Of a stretch of DNA of 52,318 nt, positions 47,747 to 52,318 are shown piece after piece (the stretch's first letter is position 1; each line of letters opens with the position of its first letter). The position numbers were made by a program, and so were the translations under genes. The stretch comes from Minisyncoccota bacterium (lineage in GTDB: Bacteria > Patescibacteriota > Minisyncoccia > Phycocordibacterales > Phycocordibacteraceae). Under the pieces are notes generated by a model that was not told the DNA's origin, made no database searches, and saw only the letters and a program-made list of their open reading frames with translations. The stretch spans positions 1 through 52,318 of the forward strand of contig DATKSU010000001.1 of assembly GCA_035531495.1 (NCBI GenBank), written 5' to 3'.

Positions 47747-48100
47747 TTACTCACTCCTATCCGGGATGATCATCCCCGCTCCGATTTCAGAGTGGCAATT
47801 CTTACAAACTAGGACACATTTCTCGGCTTCTCTGACCAAAGAATCCCACGAATACGACAATCCCTTCACACTCAGCGCGAATTTCTTATTCCCTGGATCC
47901 TTATGATGGAAATCAAGAGCGCCGGCATACCTCTTATATCCGCATAGAGAACACTTGCCGCCGAACATCTCGACTAATTTCTCTTTCTTGCGGCGACGAT
48001 TCTGCATGACGGCTGTCGAAGCGCACTTGCCGCAGCGATACCACCCTTCAGTTCTGGGGAAAAATTTCGTCAGTCCGTGAATCTTGCAAATCCTTTGCAT
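47747..48100 (-). CDS. HNH endonuclease (His-Me finger) with an N-terminal Cys cluster
   Basis: CSLCGYKRYAGALDFHHKDPGNK...LVCKNCHSEI is an HNH core. The N-terminus carries C...CGKC. G+C is low. TATACT (48109-48114, minus) lies 8 nt upstream of the ATG at 48100. Confidence 0.75.
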   Translation of the reverse strand: MQRICKIHGLTKFFPRTEGWYRCGKCASTAVMQNRRRKKEKLVEMFGGKCSLCGYKRYAGALDFHHKDPGNKKFALSVKGLSYSWDSLVREAEKCVLVCKNCHSEIGAGMIIPDRSE

Positions 48101-48174
48101 ATGAGAACAGTATAACACCGGGTGTTAATATTGTTTTCCTGGGCAGCCTGTGTATAATTTTCCTGTTCGTGTAT

Positions 48175-48459
48175 TCCGCGGTAGCTCAATGGTAGAGCAG
48201 CTCCCTGTGGCGAACGCAGCTTCCTGGAGGAATCCAGGTCGAATAACGAGGTGAATTGCTGGAAACCCCTTGCGGGCGATCAGCAGCCAAGCTCCGCTTC
48301 CGCGGAGAAGGTTCAGAGACTATCCCTAACGGGAGTACCCGACGGTATCGTCAGGGGAAGCGCCTCGCATCGAGAACCGATGATGATATAGTCCACGCCT
48401 TCAGCAATGAGGGAACACGTGTAAGGAGTTGGTTGTAGGTTCGAGTCCTACCCGCGGAG
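48175..48459 (+). tRNA. tRNA-Asn (anticodon GTT) interrupted in the anticodon by a 213-nt group I intron
   Basis: Exons: TCCGCGG-TA-GCTC-AATGGTA-GAGC-A-GCTCC-CTGT | TAA-GGAGT-TGGTT-GTAGG-TTCGAGT-CCTAC-CCGCGGA-G. The acceptor has 7 perfect bp. The spliced loop is CTGTTAA. TATAAT lies at 48153-48158. Confidence 0.85.
48209..48421 (+). ncRNA. group I intron (IC3-like core, no ORF)
   Basis: P1: exon CUGU|G pairs with CGCAG (48215-48219), giving the U-G wobble at the 5' splice site. The last intron nucleotide is G. P2 is CCUGGA-GGAA-UCCAGG. The core strings CAGCCAAGC and GAAGGUUCAGAGACUA closely resemble the Azoarcus and Tetrahymena cores as I recall them. Confidence 0.85.
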
Positions 48460-50133
48460 CAGACTGCCTGATTTGGGGTCAAAGAACCCAAATCGGACAG
48501 TGATTAGGGGGTTTTCGGAGGTTCGAAAATTATTTCGAGGTTCCGGAACTTCCATCACAACGGAATGAGTATTGTTAACAGAAATATCCTGCAAATGGCC
48601 GCCTTTGGCGGCTTTTTGCATGGGTTCTAAAATTTCTATGTCGAGTCCTTTCTGGATGCGTTCTGCGAGCTTCCGGACGGCCGGTTTGAATTCGTAGGTT
48701 GTATCACCGTTCTTGAGACGCAGAGCGGAGAACATCTGCGCGATGAGGACACGCCGCTGATCTGGCGAACGCTTGAGGTAAATCTCCTTGGCTCGGAGCG
48801 CAAGGTCGAGAATGTTCTGCCACAGCTCATAGTATTTCGCTTCCTTGGACTGAATCCTCTCCAGCTCTTGCGTTATGCTGGTGCGCTCGTCGTCGATTTC
48901 CTTCTCCTTGCGCTTCCAGTGCTCGGCGGTTATCTCCTCGTCGAGCTTAGCGTCAAATAGCCGCTCCTTGCGGGCTCCTAGGGCGTTATAGCGGGTCTGA
49001 AGCTGGTTCCGCTGGTGTTCCTTATAGGCAACCTCCTCCGCGTGATTCTGCTTGATTTTGAGGCGAATCAGCTCGGCTTCCTCTGGGGTCAAAGTTTCGA
49101 ATATCTGGAATGCTCTCGTGATCTGCTTTTCCACCTTCTCCTCACGAGCGCAGATTTGCTGCGAGCAGTCGCGATAGTGGCTGCAATGGTAATAAATATA
49201 ATTGTGGACGTTGCCGTTCTGTTGGCGCTTCGTCTTCAGTTCGGCCGTAATGGTGCTCCCGCACTCGCCGCATGTAATCAGTTTCCTGAAAGCGAAATTG
49301 CGCCGCTGAAAGTGCGGTGCTTTTTTGCCGGAGAGAGTCGCTTGCACTTGGTCGAACAAACCTTGAGAGATGAGTGGCTCGTGCTTTCCTTGTCCGCGAA
49401 TCATGTCGTTCCAGCGGATCATCCCACAATAGAACGGGTCGCGGAGCATATCGTCGAGGCGGCTTTTAACCAGCCGATTGCCGGACGGTGAACGCAATCC
49501 TTCTTTGTAGAGCTGATTAGCAAGCGCCTTTATCGAGTAGTTGCCGGTCGCGTATAGTTCGAACGCGCGACGCATGAACGGAGCCATCTTCGGGTCAGGA
49601 ACATGCGTTTTGTGCCCACGTTCGCCGACGGTCATATATCCGAGCTTTGCGCGACATGGAATCCACCCTTGTTGTATTTTCTCCTCCTGACCTTTTTTGA
49701 CCTCCTCCGAAAGATTGTCGACGTAGTTCTTCGCGAAAAGGATTCTTACGCCCATATTCAACTTTTCCTGCGACCGAGAGTTTTTTGTAAGCACAAGCGA
49801 GTCCTTCACAAGATGCACTTGTCGCGCCTCATCTTCTTCGAGCCAGTCATCTATCGTAACCAAGTCTCTATAGTTACGCGTTAGCCGGTCAGCCTTCTCG
49901 CAGATAATCGCCGGTATCTGATTCTTCGCCGCGAAATTCACCATCTGCGTGAAGACCTGCCGTTGTTGCTTTCCCGCCGCCGATTCCGAAACTGAAAAGA
50001 CTTGCTCGATGTCGAATCCGTGCTTCTCCGCGTATTCCGTAAGAAATCTCTCTTGCGAGGGCAACGAAAACCCCGTCTCCTCTTGTTCCTTTGAGGAGAC
50101 TCGGCAGTAGAGAATTGCTTTCGGTTTTTCCAT
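48448..50133 (-). CDS. large serine recombinase (phage-integrase/transposase type)
   Basis: N-terminal resolvase domain AILYCRVSSKEQ (catalytic Ser), a recombinase domain, a zinc ribbon CGECGS...YYHCSHYRDC and a C-terminal coiled-coil. SD is AAGGAG. The stop codon lies inside the tRNA-Asn T-stem. Confidence 0.9.
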   Translation of the reverse strand: MEKPKAILYCRVSSKEQEETGFSLPSQERFLTEYAEKHGFDIEQVFSVSESAAGKQQRQVFTQMVNFAAKNQIPAIICEKADRLTRNYRDLVTIDDWLEEDEARQVHLVKDSLVLTKNSRSQEKLNMGVRILFAKNYVDNLSEEVKKGQEEKIQQGWIPCRAKLGYMTVGERGHKTHVPDPKMAPFMRRAFELYATGNYSIKALANQLYKEGLRSPSGNRLVKSRLDDMLRDPFYCGMIRWNDMIRGQGKHEPLISQGLFDQVQATLSGKKAPHFQRRNFAFRKLITCGECGSTITAELKTKRQQNGNVHNYIYYHCSHYRDCSQQICAREEKVEKQITRAFQIFETLTPEEAELIRLKIKQNHAEEVAYKEHQRNQLQTRYNALGARKERLFDAKLDEEITAEHWKRKEKEIDDERTSITQELERIQSKEAKYYELWQNILDLALRAKEIYLKRSPDQRRVLIAQMFSALRLKNGDTTYEFKPAVRKLAERIQKGLDIEILEPMQKAAKGGHLQDISVNNTHSVVMEVPEPRNNFRTSENPLITVRFGFFDPKSGSLLRG

Positions 50134-50140
50134 AGAAATA

Positions 50141-50473
50141 TCACTCCTTGGCTACCAAGATGCCATAGAGTTTCTTCACACCTTTCTTCAGTGTTGATTC
50201 TTGCTGCTTGGGAAGACTGGCTCTGACTGAAGCCGGAGTTTTCCCTTGCGACTCAAGCATCTTGATTGCGTTCGGACTATCAATCGGCACTAGGTTTGCA
50301 TTTCCGCACAACTTGCAAACCTTCTTTGTTCCGCTATTTCGCCATATCTCGTAAATGATGCCCGGCAGAATAAAAAAGCACAGTAGAATCAGTGTAATCC
50401 ATATCGAGCCGGGAATTTCTTCCTTTGGCGAGCCTACATGCCCGCAGTTCGTGCACACCATCGGATCTTTCAT
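50141..50473 (-). CDS. zinc-ribbon membrane protein, 110 aa
   Basis: The CTNCGH...CKLCGN Cys pairs flank one TM helix (IWITLILLCFFILPGIIY). No family was recognised. Confidence 0.55.
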   Translation of the reverse strand: MKDPMVCTNCGHVGSPKEEIPGSIWITLILLCFFILPGIIYEIWRNSGTKKVCKLCGNANLVPIDSPNAIKMLESQGKTPASVRASLPKQQESTLKKGVKKLYGILVAKE

Positions 50474-50477
50474 AGTT

Positions 50478-50597
50478 TTGGACGCCTATTGGTAATTGCC
50501 TGGACAACTGTAATGCCCCCACAAGGGTTTGACAGCCTTGCGGCTGACCGGCGTCCAAGCCAGGCCCCTTGTGGAGGCATTACAGGCTTGGACGCCG
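50478..50597. repeat. nested inverted/direct repeat cluster (20-bp inverted repeat, 13-bp inverted repeat, three copies of TTGGACGCC)
   Basis: 50508-50527 is complementary to 50566-50585 (19 of 20). CGGCGTCCAAGCC (50549-50561) is perfectly complementary to 50585-50597. TTGGACGCC occurs direct at 50478 and 50588 and inverted at 50550-50558. An inner hairpin CAGCC-TTGC-GGCTG lies at 50533-50546. Confidence 0.75.
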
Positions 50598-50646
50598 TTA
50601 TTCAGTTGTTCAATTAGTTTAGCATTCATACTGCCTTCAACAATGG

Positions 50647-50868
50647 CTACATTTTCTCTGGCAACCCCACAAGTAGCCGCTCCATTCTCATGAGACGTTC
50701 TTCGATTTCTATCCAGTCCTTCATTTCGGATGAGCTGAGATTTACTGATACTATTTTGCCGTCCTTAATGACCACCTTTTCGGAATACCTAGAGTTTACG
50801 AATACCCTCGTTCTTTTGATTCGATTTTCTTGATCCTCAAGCATTTGCATGATTTTGTCTTTTGCCAT
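50647..50868 (-). CDS. hypothetical protein, 73 aa
   Basis: The ORF is in operon orientation between the ParB-like gene and the repeat cluster. The product is charged and helical. No homology was recognised. Confidence 0.45.
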   Translation of the reverse strand: MAKDKIMQMLEDQENRIKRTRVFVNSRYSEKVVIKDGKIVSVNLSSSEMKDWIEIEERLMRMERLLVGLPEKM

Positions 50869-50874
50869 ATTTAT

Positions 50875-51615
50875 TTAGTTAGAGTTTTTGTAATGTTGCT
50901 CGACGATATCGAGCATCTTTGCGAACAGTGCCGACACGTTGCGGATATTCTCGCGTTCAGAAACGGTTGCGAGCACCTCTCGTAGATGTTCGAAATCTGC
51001 CTTGTCCGCGAGATATACTTCTGCATCCTTTTCGAGCAATTTGAGCACCTCGTCGAACTTTTCTTTTTGCTTTGGCAAGAACAGGATCTGCAACATCTCG
51101 TAGTCGAAATCGAACACGATGTCGTCCGCCCTTATAGCGGGCAGGTCGAAGTCGAGTTCACCATCGAATATTCCAGACTCAAGCTTCGATTCGATGCTTT
51201 GTATTTCATTGAATAGTTCCGCAAGCATAATCGGGTCGTCGTAGCCGGTGAGTGCGTTGTGCGCCAACTGCTTTGCGCGGATCTGGTCGCGCGATAGTTC
51301 TTCTTCAATCACCATCACAAACACTTCTCGCAATCCTGCAGCGCGAGCCGCACGTGTCCGATGATGCCCAGAGATAATGTGGAACTCTTCGTTGTCCGAC
51401 GCGTTTTTCTTGATGACACACAGCGGCAGAGATTCGAGTCGTTTGCCATCTGCAATCGTGATCTTCATCCGGTCGAGTTTGTCCGGACTCATCACACGAG
51501 CATTCTTGTCTTGCTCGCGCAGGAGGTCGATGTCGACTTTCCAGATTGCGATTCCGTTGCCCATATCGAGCACCCTCTCTTTGATTGGTTCGTTTTCCAT
51601 ACTTCTATGCGGCAA
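50875..51615 (-). CDS. ParB-like nuclease (ParB/Srx fold) domain protein
   Basis: EFHIISGHHRTRAARAAG is the ParB/sulfiredoxin-type GHHR motif in the N-terminal domain. The C-terminal domain is unassigned. Confidence 0.75.
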   Translation of the reverse strand: MPHRSMENEPIKERVLDMGNGIAIWKVDIDLLREQDKNARVMSPDKLDRMKITIADGKRLESLPLCVIKKNASDNEEFHIISGHHRTRAARAAGLREVFVMVIEEELSRDQIRAKQLAHNALTGYDDPIMLAELFNEIQSIESKLESGIFDGELDFDLPAIRADDIVFDFDYEMLQILFLPKQKEKFDEVLKLLEKDAEVYLADKADFEHLREVLATVSERENIRNVSALFAKMLDIVEQHYKNSN

Positions 51616-52318
51616 CAGCCACGTTAGCTACTAATGCACGTTCTTCATCGAGAAACTGGCGCACCACACCCTTGAAATCCTGCTCGCGGAAATCGGTGTC
51701 GTAGAGGATTTTATACATACCGCCGTTAGCGCGCCCCTCCTTCAATCGTTCGCAGGAGAGTGCCTTCAAGATGCCGTTATTGAGCTTCACACGGCGATAC
51801 TTTGAGAGGCAGGTAGTCCGGAGTCCACGAAGCCTGTAGACGCGGTTTACGCGGCTTGCAGTGCGATACAACACGTCGGCAAACTCGTTGCAGGTAATCG
51901 CCAGCATGAGCAGACGATTCGCCCTCGGCATGTTTCGGACCGGCGCGTTGAATCCGTAATTTTCGAACACGCGGTCGCTCTTCAAACCAAACAAAGAGTT
52001 CGTCATGAAGCCGACAGTCGCGAACACTTTGCCGTCCACAAGCATGAGGAAATATTGCTCCGCGCCGGTGTTCCCGAGTTTGTGTGCGAACAGGTCGCGG
52101 TAATAGAGAGCCTGCTGTTCTGGCACAGATACGAAACTGATCTTGCTGTCATAAGTCAGTTCATCGCCATTCATGAACACTGGTGCTGGGTAAGGCTTCA
52201 CACCTCGCGAGGCCATAAAGTCTACGGATGAGCGATACTGGAATCCTTCTAGAATCTCTGGCTTCGTAAGTAGCCAGTAGTCGCGCTTGTCTACATCATT
52301 CTCTTTGCAGAAGATTAC
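51605..52318 (-). CDS. hypothetical protein, 5' end outside the window (reading frame open to the edge)
   Basis: The frame of the 51605..52216 ORF continues without a stop for the 34 codons up to position 52318 (VIFCKENDVDKRDYWLL...). It overlaps the ParB-like gene start by 11 nt. No family was recognised. Confidence 0.55.
   Translation of the reverse strand, partial: VIFCKENDVDKRDYWLLTKPEILEGFQYRSSVDFMASRGVKPYPAPVFMNGDELTYDSKISFVSVPEQQALYYRDLFAHKLGNTGAEQYFLMLVDGKVFATVGFMTNSLFGLKSDRVFENYGFNAPVRNMPRANRLLMLAITCNEFADVLYRTASRVNRVYRLRGLRTTCLSKYRRVKLNNGILKALSCERLKEGRANGGMYKILYDTDFREQDFKGVVRQFLDEERALVANVAVAA

Follow-up and report, generated by a model that had tools for sequence, protein, structure and literature searches.

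An 'Asn.4Ug'-type group I intron in the anticodon of a CPR bacterial tRNA-Asn gene, beside a free-standing HNH endonuclease gene

The anticodon of an asparagine tRNA gene in the window (the whole stretch of DNA analysed, 52,318 nt) is split by a 213-nt group I intron of the self-splicing type, whose splicing is predicted from its structural model. We put at roughly 0.88 the probability of the full reading, in which a chromosomal tRNA-Asn(GUU) gene, belonging to a CPR bacterium of Parcubacteria/Paceibacteria type, is interrupted at U35|U36 by an ORF-less intron of the 'Asn.4Ug' type, with a neighbouring HNH gene whose product most likely acts in trans. The features of the locus are:

47747..48118, minus strand: free-standing HNH endonuclease gene (PHROGs HNH families, invariant signature, tblastn adjacency)
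48175..48208, plus strand: tRNA-Asn 5' exon (acceptor 5' strand, D arm, anticodon stem 5' strand, loop bases C32 U33 G34 U35)
48209..48421, plus strand: group I intron, 213 nt, without an ORF (RF00028 match, fold, covariation, P1 register)
48422..48459, plus strand: tRNA-Asn 3' exon (U36 A37 A38, anticodon stem 3' strand, variable loop, T arm, acceptor 3' strand)
48448..50133, minus strand: large serine recombinase gene (Pfam Resolvase, Recombinase, Zn_ribbon_recom)

A first-pass annotation had described the letters of 48175-48459 and proposed that a complete cloverleaf is obtained only when 213 nt (48209-48421) are removed. Re-inspection of the sequence agrees with that description, and splicing 48208 to 48422 in silico yields tRNA-Asn(GTT), with exons that pair perfectly as a cloverleaf. 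The final base of the 5' exon is U48208 (U-1), the discriminator G73 lies at 48459, and CCA is not encoded; a scan upstream of the tRNA found no consensus promoter. That the removed segment is a group I intron is borne out by the Rfam covariance model RF00028 (Intron_gpI), which matches 48212-48414 on the plus strand over its full extent (model positions 1-253) at 62.3 bits (E=1.7e-13), above the gathering score of 50 bits. Every assigned helix of the intron consists of standard pairs:

48205-09/48215-19, plus strand: P1 (structure and P1 register analysis)
48215..48219, plus strand: internal guide sequence CGCAG; G48216 wobbles with U48208, C48215 pairs with G48209, the first intron base
48223-28/48233-38, plus strand: P2, GGAA loop
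48247-53/48361-67, plus strand: P3 (fold)
48257-62/48280-85, plus strand: P4 (fold)
48266-68/48274-76, plus strand: P5 (fold)
48286-88/48310-12, plus strand: P6 (fold)
48292-97/48302-07, plus strand: P6a, hairpin CUCCGC-UUCC-GCGGAG
48316,48318-22/48389-94, plus strand: P7 (fold)
48323-26/48331-34, plus strand: P7.1, UCCC-UAAC-GGGA
48338-44/48349-56, plus strand: P7.2 (fold)
48368-72/48378-82, plus strand: P8, CAUCG-AGAAC-CGAUG, by Rfam alignment
48398-403/48408-13, plus strand: P9, GCAA loop
48421, plus strand: omega-G, last intron base

The minimum free energy fold of the pre-tRNA (z = -3.0) shows these helices, and RNAalifold independently recovered P1-P6a, P8 and P9. Much of this had been drawn correctly at first pass: the U that ends the 5' exon does sit in a P1 wobble, opposite G48216 (CUGU|G with CGCAG), the intron does end in G, P2 does carry a GNRA loop, and both the wobble and the terminal G agree with the proposed insertion between anticodon positions 35 and 36. 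The hairpin first named P6 also exists and is P6a in our numbering, whereas the stem first named P8 is P7.1, the first of two hairpins (P7.1 and P7.2) that make up a 36-nt insertion between P7 and P3'. P10 is weak or absent.

Support for the structure across relatives comes from a MAFFT alignment of 60 non-redundant homologs among the matches listed, evaluated by pair counting and with RNAalifold. Cells assigned as paired were paired in 89.3% of cases, against 35-48% when the partners were slid, and the covariation score of 0.384 compares with 0.130 in shuffles, none of 500 of which scored as high. Compensatory changes were found in P2, P3, P4, P6a, P7.1 and P8, the paired fraction being 96.9% in P3, 98.9% in P4, 96.3% in P6a and 95.3% in P8; pairs of the anticodon stem, formed between the two exons, covary as well (alignment columns 1-2 with 297-298). 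A P3-P7 core unable to form had been named beforehand as an outcome that would count against the intron, and the core instead pairs in the fold, with P7 100% paired and invariant in the homologs. Covariation is uninformative for P7 and for the exon strand of P1, which do not vary, and P7.2 and P9 are weakly documented across the homologs, with 50-70% pairing that probably reflects length differences. The P1 register is conserved in full: the pairs C32-G, U33-A, G34-C and U35·G are invariant, as are the guide GCAG and the splice-site UG (60/60 sequences), and of 117 unique introns among the matches listed, 103 pair their base +1 with the base just 5' of GCAG, as G-C, A-U, C-G, U-A or G·U.

Locus anatomy and established group I chemistry together suggest how splicing would proceed. 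The pre-tRNA would be transcribed with the intron in place, and the intron would fold into P1-P9 plus P7.1/P7.2, with GNRA loops on P2 and P9. The guide CGCAG would pair with C32-U35 and the first intron base, placing U35 in the U·G wobble, and a free guanosine bound in P7 would attack 3' of U48208. G48421 would then occupy the G site, and attack by the U35 3'-OH after G48421 would join U35 to U36 and form the GUU anticodon, while the 5-bp anticodon stem, instead of a strong P10, would keep the exons together.

The gene upstream is divergent from the tRNA gene, across a gap of ~57-75 nt that depends on its start: the ORF has 123 codons from GTG 48118 and 117 from the likelier ATG 48100. Its protein matches phrog_2255 (E=4.1e-23), all 25 aligned family members match PHROGs HNH families, and the signature CxxC..HH..N..CxxCH is invariant (C56, C59, H71, H72, C101, C105, N107, C108, H109). 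Single-sequence searches of Pfam, NCBIfam and PDB with this ORF were sub-threshold or empty; the window protein scores 15.1 bits against Pfam PF01844, under the cutoff of 21.4, with 23 of the 25 family members matching (best 2.2e-6), and a profile search of PDB returned as its sole match a group II intron maturase, through the HNH portion of that protein (E=1.2e-4). With a GC3 of 0.57 (0.85 in host genes) and a dN/dS of 0.127 relative to L237, the related MAG with the closest copy of the intron, the gene is on these measures compositionally foreign and under purifying selection.

Homologs of this HNH protein occur in two kinds of place around the same intron family. Among the matches listed, 52 longer Asn introns encode one within their P1 loop, and ~13 Asn loci with compact introns have one upstream and divergent; homologs also adjoin a related intron in CAU-anticodon tRNAs. 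ARAGORN calls of 'Gln(CUG)' beside flanking HNH genes proved to be mis-splits of these CAU-anticodon tRNAs, whose intron follows U36. In the protein tree, the flanking clade to which the window gene belongs forms one branch, set apart by its N-terminal zinc module, and other flanking copies (L182, L184, L244, L305, L290, L323 and L147) nest among the intron-encoded ones.

A free-standing endonuclease gene adjoining an intron that lacks one is thus what the window contains, and, the gene being related to the homing endonuclease of that intron's own family, the arrangement suggests trans or collaborative homing. The HNH gene probably aids the spread of the intron by such a putative route, its product being most likely a trans-acting homing endonuclease for the intron/tRNA locus. 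We hold more tentatively, at somewhat under even odds, the stronger proposal that intron and divergent HNH gene may form a working homing pair on a bacterial chromosome, within a family that would keep both ends of an endonuclease-gene invasion pathway, HNH in the flank or in the P1 loop, and would have passed between these states several times.

It is also conceivable, if rather unlikely, that the HNH gene plays no part in intron movement, whether as a selfish free-standing endonuclease gene aimed at some other target or as one for a domesticated nuclease, and that its adjacency reflects shared clade ancestry. For most compact Asn introns (111 among the matches listed) the nearest 1.2 kb holds no HNH gene, so that the intron evidently persists in its absence, and since the flanking clade with its different zinc module is a single branch, one ancestral event could account for the seven closest cases. 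Set against this are the presence of the same protein family in the P1 loop of sister introns, the nesting of the other flanking copies among intron-encoded HNH proteins, the recurrence of the flanking arrangement by the related intron in CAU-anticodon tRNAs, and a foreign composition that is nevertheless combined with purifying selection. One contig (L003, from SRR8554501) matches the window at 100% identity and stops exactly at 48208. Such a break would fit a branch in the assembly graph, but our search yielded no contig lacking the intron, and the break would arise equally if a strain with a different intron co-occurred.

Very improbable is a reading in which the intron has decayed and lost splicing, the tRNA-Asn gene is a pseudogene, and asparagine is decoded by a copy elsewhere in the genome. 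The intron does lack an ORF, and our tRNA-Asn gene count, which found no second gene, covers the 52-kb window alone. Yet every core element is intact and agrees with columns that are invariant in the 60 homologs, the exons form their perfect cloverleaf, and relative to L237 the exons are 100% identical while all 8 intron substitutions spare the helices, falling in loops or joiners or changing C-G to U·G. Further evidence against decay is that intron-containing tRNAs complete the tRNA sets of complete CPR genomes; the paper describing these genomes could detect some tRNAs only by taking group I introns into account, a result that fits a possible single-copy status of tRNA-Asn here.

Splice junctions 2 nt upstream would instead give tRNA-Thr(UGU), with a 213-nt intron at 48207-48419 between U33 and U34, an alternative that the first-pass annotation had itself raised. 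The 2-nt ambiguity (U35|U36 for Asn, U33|U34 for Thr) is genuine. Default ARAGORN calls no tRNA at the split locus, its intron mode (-i) prefers the leftward placement and calls tRNA-Thr(TGT), here and in at least 85 homologs, and the Thr junction also has a U at -1 (48206) and a G at the intron end (48419); a label 'Thr.2Ug' in the Williams alignment, as far as that source extends, matches it too. Given the 48208|48422 splice, however, ARAGORN returns Asn(gtt), and four lines of evidence reject the Thr reading, which we consider scarcely credible. In the conserved, covarying P1 the Thr junction base U33 pairs with A, not G, and the wobble sits at U35. In 29 of 186 genes among the matches listed, omega-2 is a base other than G, leaving the Thr reading there without a terminal G (the G at the Asn intron end in 186/186 genes of Asn layout, among the same matches, follows by construction from the rule that defined them). 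Variation at omega-1 would turn the Thr anticodon into CGU or AGU, whereas the Asn anticodon is GUU every time. Lastly, G73 is an Asn identity element established in E. coli work, and the tRNA bodies are Asn-like, with U1-A72/G73 in the window and in 177 of 186 split genes among the matches listed; in a small set of uninterrupted genes at the same loci, Asn genes have U1-A72/G73 (n=2) and Thr genes G1-C72 with A73 or U73 (n=3). The Asn(GUU) assignment thus stands, and the ligated junction expected from it is GCAGCTCCCTGT|TAAGGAGTTGG, as opposed to CCCT|TGTAAGG for Thr.

On its other side the tRNA gene meets a serine recombinase, which is a neighbour outside the intron system. The final codons of the recombinase overlap the 3' end of the tRNA (48448-48459), and the gene marks the edge, at which GC drops from ~0.65 to ~0.50, of an inserted element that reaches the window end. 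Look-ups of the recombinase and of a ParB-like protein in public assemblies returned no record, so the other end of the element and any empty site were not found. A reading in which the split tRNA gene belongs to this element, as cargo or attachment-site copy, and not to the host is hardly tenable: the tRNA/intron/HNH region does touch the element, overlaps its recombinase ORF and has a GC of 0.48-0.57 (0.66 in the host), but L237 has the same gene order at ~78% identity (fmt ... glutaredoxin, HNH, intron-bearing tRNA-Asn), with homology that stops at 48461 and no element, and L175 also keeps an HNH gene adjoining the tRNA.

It is important to note how such genes may escape annotation. tRNAscan-SE was not designed for group I introns, and with default ARAGORN missing the gene and its intron mode reporting tRNA-Thr, CPR genomes can seem to be without a tRNA-Asn. 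If this were the sole Asn tRNA of a reduced genome, decoding of Asn codons would depend on a ribozyme, a consequence already implicit in earlier work. Less expected is that one HNH family occurs both in the P1 loop of ~50 sister introns among the matches listed and free-standing here.

The intron type itself is not new. The first-pass annotation took tRNA-Asn, interrupted between positions 35 and 36, for an unrecorded host and site, a claim that fails since the type 'Asn.4Ug' is described, with the seed Pam37.Asn.4Ug, in the alignment of the Williams 2020 preprint (doi 10.1101/2020.01.27.920355), and since we find the same layout at no fewer than 185 other loci, mostly in Patescibacteria/CPR genomes. 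It is an already described type that is common in CPR bacteria; our searches for literature on group I introns in tRNA-Asn, CPR or Patescibacteria gave nothing specific beyond that preprint. The window intron has the layout CUGU|...G|UAA and shares with the seed, as far as the alignment shows it, the tRNA, the insertion after the fourth anticodon-loop base (U35|U36), U-1, the terminal G, a 3' end in ...GUG, extra hairpins between P7 and P3', the P3' strand AGCGCC and the P7 3' strand GAUAUAGUCC. The alignment reveals no substantial difference; the window copy is compact (213 nt, ORF-less), lies in a genome of 64% GC and has a free-standing HNH neighbour.

The kinship with Azoarcus-type introns implied at first pass does not hold. 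The classical IC3 introns, in Azoarcus tRNA-Ile(CAU), Agrobacterium tRNA-Arg(CCU), cyanobacterial tRNA-Leu(UAA) and tRNA-fMet, are likewise small self-splicing anticodon-loop introns with a U·G at the 5' splice site, a terminal G, GNRA loops on P2 and P9, a short P1 from anticodon-loop bases and an anticodon stem that keeps the exons together. They are inserted at 34/35, 36/37 or 33/34, as opposed to 35/36, and lack P7.1/P7.2, and their core strings are GGUGUAGAGACUA and GGGAUAGUCC in place of GGUUCAGAGACUA and GAUAUAGUCC. The P7.1/P7.2 insertion, by which P7 is not directly followed by P3' as it is in Azoarcus and Anabaena, and the different core therefore exclude IC3; by textbook criteria, the subgroup would be IA-like.

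Outside CPR, BLAST places phage introns nearest to the window intron. Their cores are of the P7.1/P7.2 type, their host genes include terminase genes in phages of Rhizobium, Escherichia and Campylobacter, and identity is 69-75% over 105-152 nt of core in the best-covered of 73 phage records matched. The phage introns differ in splitting protein-coding genes and in peripheral parts unrelated to those of the window intron. More than 120 viral contigs contain the J6/7-P7 and P7 3' strings of the window intron; the broad core pattern GGTTCARAGACTA...GATATAGTC, which hits >120 phage contigs, was rejected as unspecific, and a tRNA-anchored pattern was used for the homolog scan in its place.

Phages also provide the closest models for the proposed homing. 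Collaborative homing joins a free-standing endonuclease and an ORF-less intron (review PMC3984707), and trans homing is exemplified by T4 mobE with the nrdB intron (PMC2790892). The present locus would be a testable chromosomal counterpart, differing in its setting, a tRNA gene on a bacterial chromosome instead of a protein-coding phage gene, and in a cleavage site and an activity that are here putative. It differs further in that the two states, ORF in P1 and ORF in the flank, coexist in one intron family, which, if the homing pair is real, would offer a natural series for the assembly and dismantling of mobile group I introns.

The sequence at 48175-48459 on the forward strand agrees with its description in the first-pass annotation as a tRNA-Asn(GUU) gene interrupted by a 213-nt group I intron (48209-48421). 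The Rfam model RF00028 matches 48212-48414 (+) over its full length, scoring 62.3 bits where the gathering score is 50 (E=1.7e-13), and is the sole non-tRNA Rfam match in the window. Default ARAGORN calls a tRNA-Tyr and a tRNA-Glu elsewhere in the window and nothing at 48175-48459; after in-silico splicing (48208/48422) it calls Asn(GTT), as had been predicted. CCA is not encoded. A promoter scan upstream of the gene found no promoter, and a TATAAT is visible by eye at 48153-48158. A complete helix model was built on the Rfam alignment together with the sequence.

Helices and terminal base of the intron (coordinates, strand, feature)
48205-09 / 48215-19, +, P1
48223-28 / 48233-38, +, P2, GGAA loop
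48247-53 / 48361-67, +, P3
48257-62 / 48280-85, +, P4
48266-68 / 48274-76, +, P5
48286-88 / 48310-12, +, P6
48292-97 / 48302-07, +, P6a
48316, 48318-22 / 48389-94, +, P7
48323-26 / 48331-34, +, P7.1
48338-44 / 48349-56, +, P7.2
48368-72 / 48378-82, +, P8
48398-403 / 48408-13, +, P9, GCAA loop
48421, +, terminal G of the intron

The hairpin UCCC-UAAC-GGGA, earlier assigned to P8, is instead P7.1; it belongs to the 36 nt inserted between P7 and P3', a stretch outside RF00028. Folded to minimum free energy without guidance, the full pre-tRNA (-113.6 kcal/mol, z = -3.0) forms P1, P2, P3, P4, P5, P6, P6a, P7.1, P7.2, P8 and P9 together with the anticodon and acceptor stems.

Searching for the J6/7-P7 core together with the 3' strand of P7 and a tRNA T-loop downstream gave 4 viral contigs; the species-representative genomes and the metagenome contigs with a match each number at least 119. 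The great majority of the genome matches listed are Patescibacteria/CPR MAGs (Saccharibacteria, Parcubacteria/Paceibacterota, Falkow-, Kaiser-, Adler-, Taylor-, Moran- and Doudnabacteria); some few matches bear the labels Omnitrophota, Planctomycetes or Gammaproteobacteria. Under a junction-aware rule (CTGT, an intron ending in G, TAA, anticodon stem 5/5, acceptor pairs at least 6/7), the layout of the window recurs in 185 of 242 loci among the matches listed; including the window, 132 of these 186 genes have introns of at most 350 nt, 2 of 351-500 nt and 52 of more than 500 nt. Closest among the matches listed is the MAG 'bacterium isolate WY3.bin89' (L237), whose exons are identical and whose intron is 96% identical; a MAG of Paceibacteria (80%) and one of Taylorbacteria (77%) come next. 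The window is itself metagenomic, and the same locus is present in several samples. One contig from SRR8554501 (L003), 100% identical to the window, stops exactly at 48208, where the 5' exon ends. The break may reflect an assembly graph that forks between alleles with and without the intron, or between strains whose introns differ; no contig lacking the intron was recovered.

With 60 non-redundant compact introns aligned by MAFFT, 89.3% of the cells in the helix model are paired, as opposed to 35-48% when the 3' partners are slid by 1-3 columns, and the covariation score of 0.384 (0.130 in shuffles) is reached by 0 of 500 shuffles. Both sides have changed in 42 of 64 pairs, with numerous compensatory changes in P2, P3, P4, P6a, P7.1 and P8; no variation occurs in P7 or in the exon strand of P1, and the signal in P7.2 and P9 is blurred because homolog lengths differ there. 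RNAalifold, independent of the drawn model, predicts P1, P2, P3, P4, P5, P6, P6a, P8 and P9 as well as the two anticodon-stem pairs formed between the exons, with compensatory change in 33 of its 45 pairs. Of the eight intron substitutions that separate L237 from the window, each lies in a loop or joiner or converts C-G to U·G. By these comparative measures the intron has the signature of a ribozyme under selection; that it is a relic is improbable in view of the covariation and the placement of the L237 substitutions.

In intron mode ARAGORN does return a tRNA gene split by 213 nt of intron, but it sets the intron at 48207-48419 and calls tRNA-Thr(TGT), so the caveat in the first-pass annotation about a junction 2 nt upstream was a genuine ambiguity; a U precedes the 5' site and a G the 3' site under both placements. 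Four independent lines nevertheless favour tRNA-Asn: P1 register, terminal G, anticodon constancy and the tRNA body. The invariant guide GCAG pairs with C32, U33, G34 and U35, so that U35 faces G in the wobble originally proposed for the 5' splice site, whereas a Thr junction would place U33 opposite A; among 117 unique introns, 103 also pair their first base with the nucleotide preceding GCAG (G-C, A-U, C-G, U-A or G·U). In 29 of the 186 genes, including one from the window's own clade (L213), the position two bases upstream of the Asn-type 3' junction holds a base other than G, which would leave a Thr-type intron there without its terminal G. Variants at the penultimate intron base would shift a Thr anticodon to CGU or AGU, while the Asn reading gives GUU always. 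Finally, 177 of the 186 split genes carry U1-A72 and G73, as do uninterrupted tRNA-Asn genes of the same loci, whereas tRNA-Thr genes of these loci have G1-C72 with A73 or U73, in a small comparison set of 2 Asn and 3 Thr genes. G73 is important for Asn identity in E. coli. That the gene is a tRNA-Thr(UGU) with its intron 2 nt to the left is thus very improbable.

Intron-mode ARAGORN labels most of about 90 homologous loci, and the window, tRNA-Thr(UGU), sometimes Thr(CGU/AGU), His or Ser. Because the default mode misses the split gene and the intron mode mislabels it, CPR genomes may seem to be without tRNA-Asn or to have surplus tRNA-Thr. A paper on complete CPR genomes describes some tRNAs as hard to detect owing to group I introns, and the tRNAscan-SE 2.0 paper states that the tool was not designed for them.

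With the parts of the tRNA-Asn locus in place and conserved, standard group I chemistry would have guanosine attack after U48208 and the terminal G48421 dock in P7, whereupon U35 would be ligated to U36, creating the GUU anticodon. No convincing P10 helix was seen in the window intron, and the 5-bp anticodon stem GCUCC/GGAGU is the obvious candidate for the exon clamp, the role reported for the anticodon stem of the Anabaena pre-tRNA intron, to judge from a title cited in PMC3984707.

Genes and element flanking tRNA-Asn, with intron-borne examples
47747-48118, -, free-standing HNH endonuclease gene, divergent from tRNA-Asn, 123 codons from GTG
48448-50133, -, large serine recombinase, 561 aa, last codons overlapping tRNA 3' bases 48448-48459
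48448-52318, inserted element, GC ~0.50, starting at the tRNA 3' end, far end beyond the window
L137, L149, L177, L188, L193 (homologous loci), example long introns with HNH ORF, 520-630 nt

Host genes upstream (mreB, murA, def, fmt, glutaredoxin) have ~65% GC, falling to ~50% from tRNA-Asn onward, and beyond the recombinase lie ParB-like and phage-GNAT-like genes. Homology with L237 ends at 48461 and the element is absent there, which marks it, judged by this alignment, as a lineage-specific insertion adjoining tRNA-Asn. A contig from SRR8554485 (L004) matches the window to 48452, where its last 5 bases differ (GCCGG vs CGCGG, window 48452-48457); this divergence, within the acceptor 3' strand and adjoining the recombinase stop codon, might stem from a variant att site or from an assembly tip.

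The HNH gene more likely starts at ATG 48100 (117 codons), given its homologs. Pfam at default settings gave no match for ORF 47747-48118; in an alignment of 25 family members the HNH PHROGs match all 25 (window protein E=4.1e-23) and Pfam HNH 23, the window protein falling under the cutoff. C56, C59, H71, H72, C101, C105, N107, C108 and H109 are invariant in the family, and the N-terminus is a C..H..CxxC module in the window as against a basic helix in intron-encoded relatives. A dN/dS of 0.127 against L237 indicates purifying selection, and GC3 (0.57 vs 0.85 in neighbouring host genes) a foreign composition. Among 83 tblastn matches in the retrieved loci, a homolog of 100-116 aa lies on the tRNA strand within 52 long Asn-type introns, inside the P1 loop, where the 5' splice site precedes it and the GCAG guide follows; since the ORF runs into the guide, translation and P1 formation would compete. 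Directly upstream of the tRNA, and mostly divergent, are homologs in the window's clade (L237, L213, L209, L318, L281, L185, L175) and a few other loci; no HNH gene occurs within 1.2 kb at 111 compact introns. In a neighbour-joining tree without support values the window clade forms one branch, and other flanking copies nest among intron-encoded ones. The flanking gene of a Paceibacteria MAG (L175:2933-3263) looks frameshifted near its C-terminus, giving two tblastn pieces and losing CxxCH, which suggests a decaying copy. The arrangement in the window, a free-standing HNH gene beside an ORF-less intron, fits collaborative or trans homing as defined in phages, and the two may form such a system.

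The same non-IC3 core occurs in CAU-anticodon tRNAs of three 'Gammaproteobacteria' MAGs (L187, L346, L347) and of Vibrio sp. 10N.286.49.B1 (L220), a cultured isolate that could be a culturable model. Here the intron follows U36 (CUCAU/A...GUG) in tRNA bodies resembling tRNA-Ile2; ARAGORN mislabels these loci as Gln or Met, and three of the four, mislabelled Gln, have a flanking divergent HNH gene. By ARAGORN calls, the core strings also occur in CPR MAGs in Phe GAA (L196, L202, L212, after U33), Tyr GTA (L148), Leu CAA (L186) and Asp GTC (L216). The nearest non-CPR sequences are phage intron cores (69-75% identity over 105-152 nt in the best-covered matches). The best, Rhizobium phage RHph_N3_13 (L129, MN988507.1, 1501-1651), falls in an unannotated gap directly before the CDS annotated as terminase large subunit, probably an unannotated intron splitting the terminase gene.

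The finding is real and its first reading essentially right, but it is not novel as a kind. The hosts then listed, Leu, fMet, Arg and Ile, are the classical set, all four IC3; the intron is of a different structural class from those with which it had been compared, not IC3, and belongs to a described type, so that the Asn 35/36 site is not new. A 2020 preprint by Williams (doi 10.1101/2020.01.27.920355) widened bacterial tRNA introns to 21 tRNA/site types, and its seed alignment holds 'Pam37.Asn.4Ug', whose host and site are exactly those of the window intron, along with Tyr.4Ug, Asp.4Ug, Phe.2Ug, Leu.1Ug, Lys.2Ug and 'Thr.2Ug', the last with a P1 (CUGUC/GGCAG) that looks like the window layout read 2 nt to the left. 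The window has in common with the Asn, Phe, Leu.1, Lys.2 and tmRNA rows of that alignment both the extra hairpins between P7 and P3' and AGCGCC / GAUAUAGUCC.
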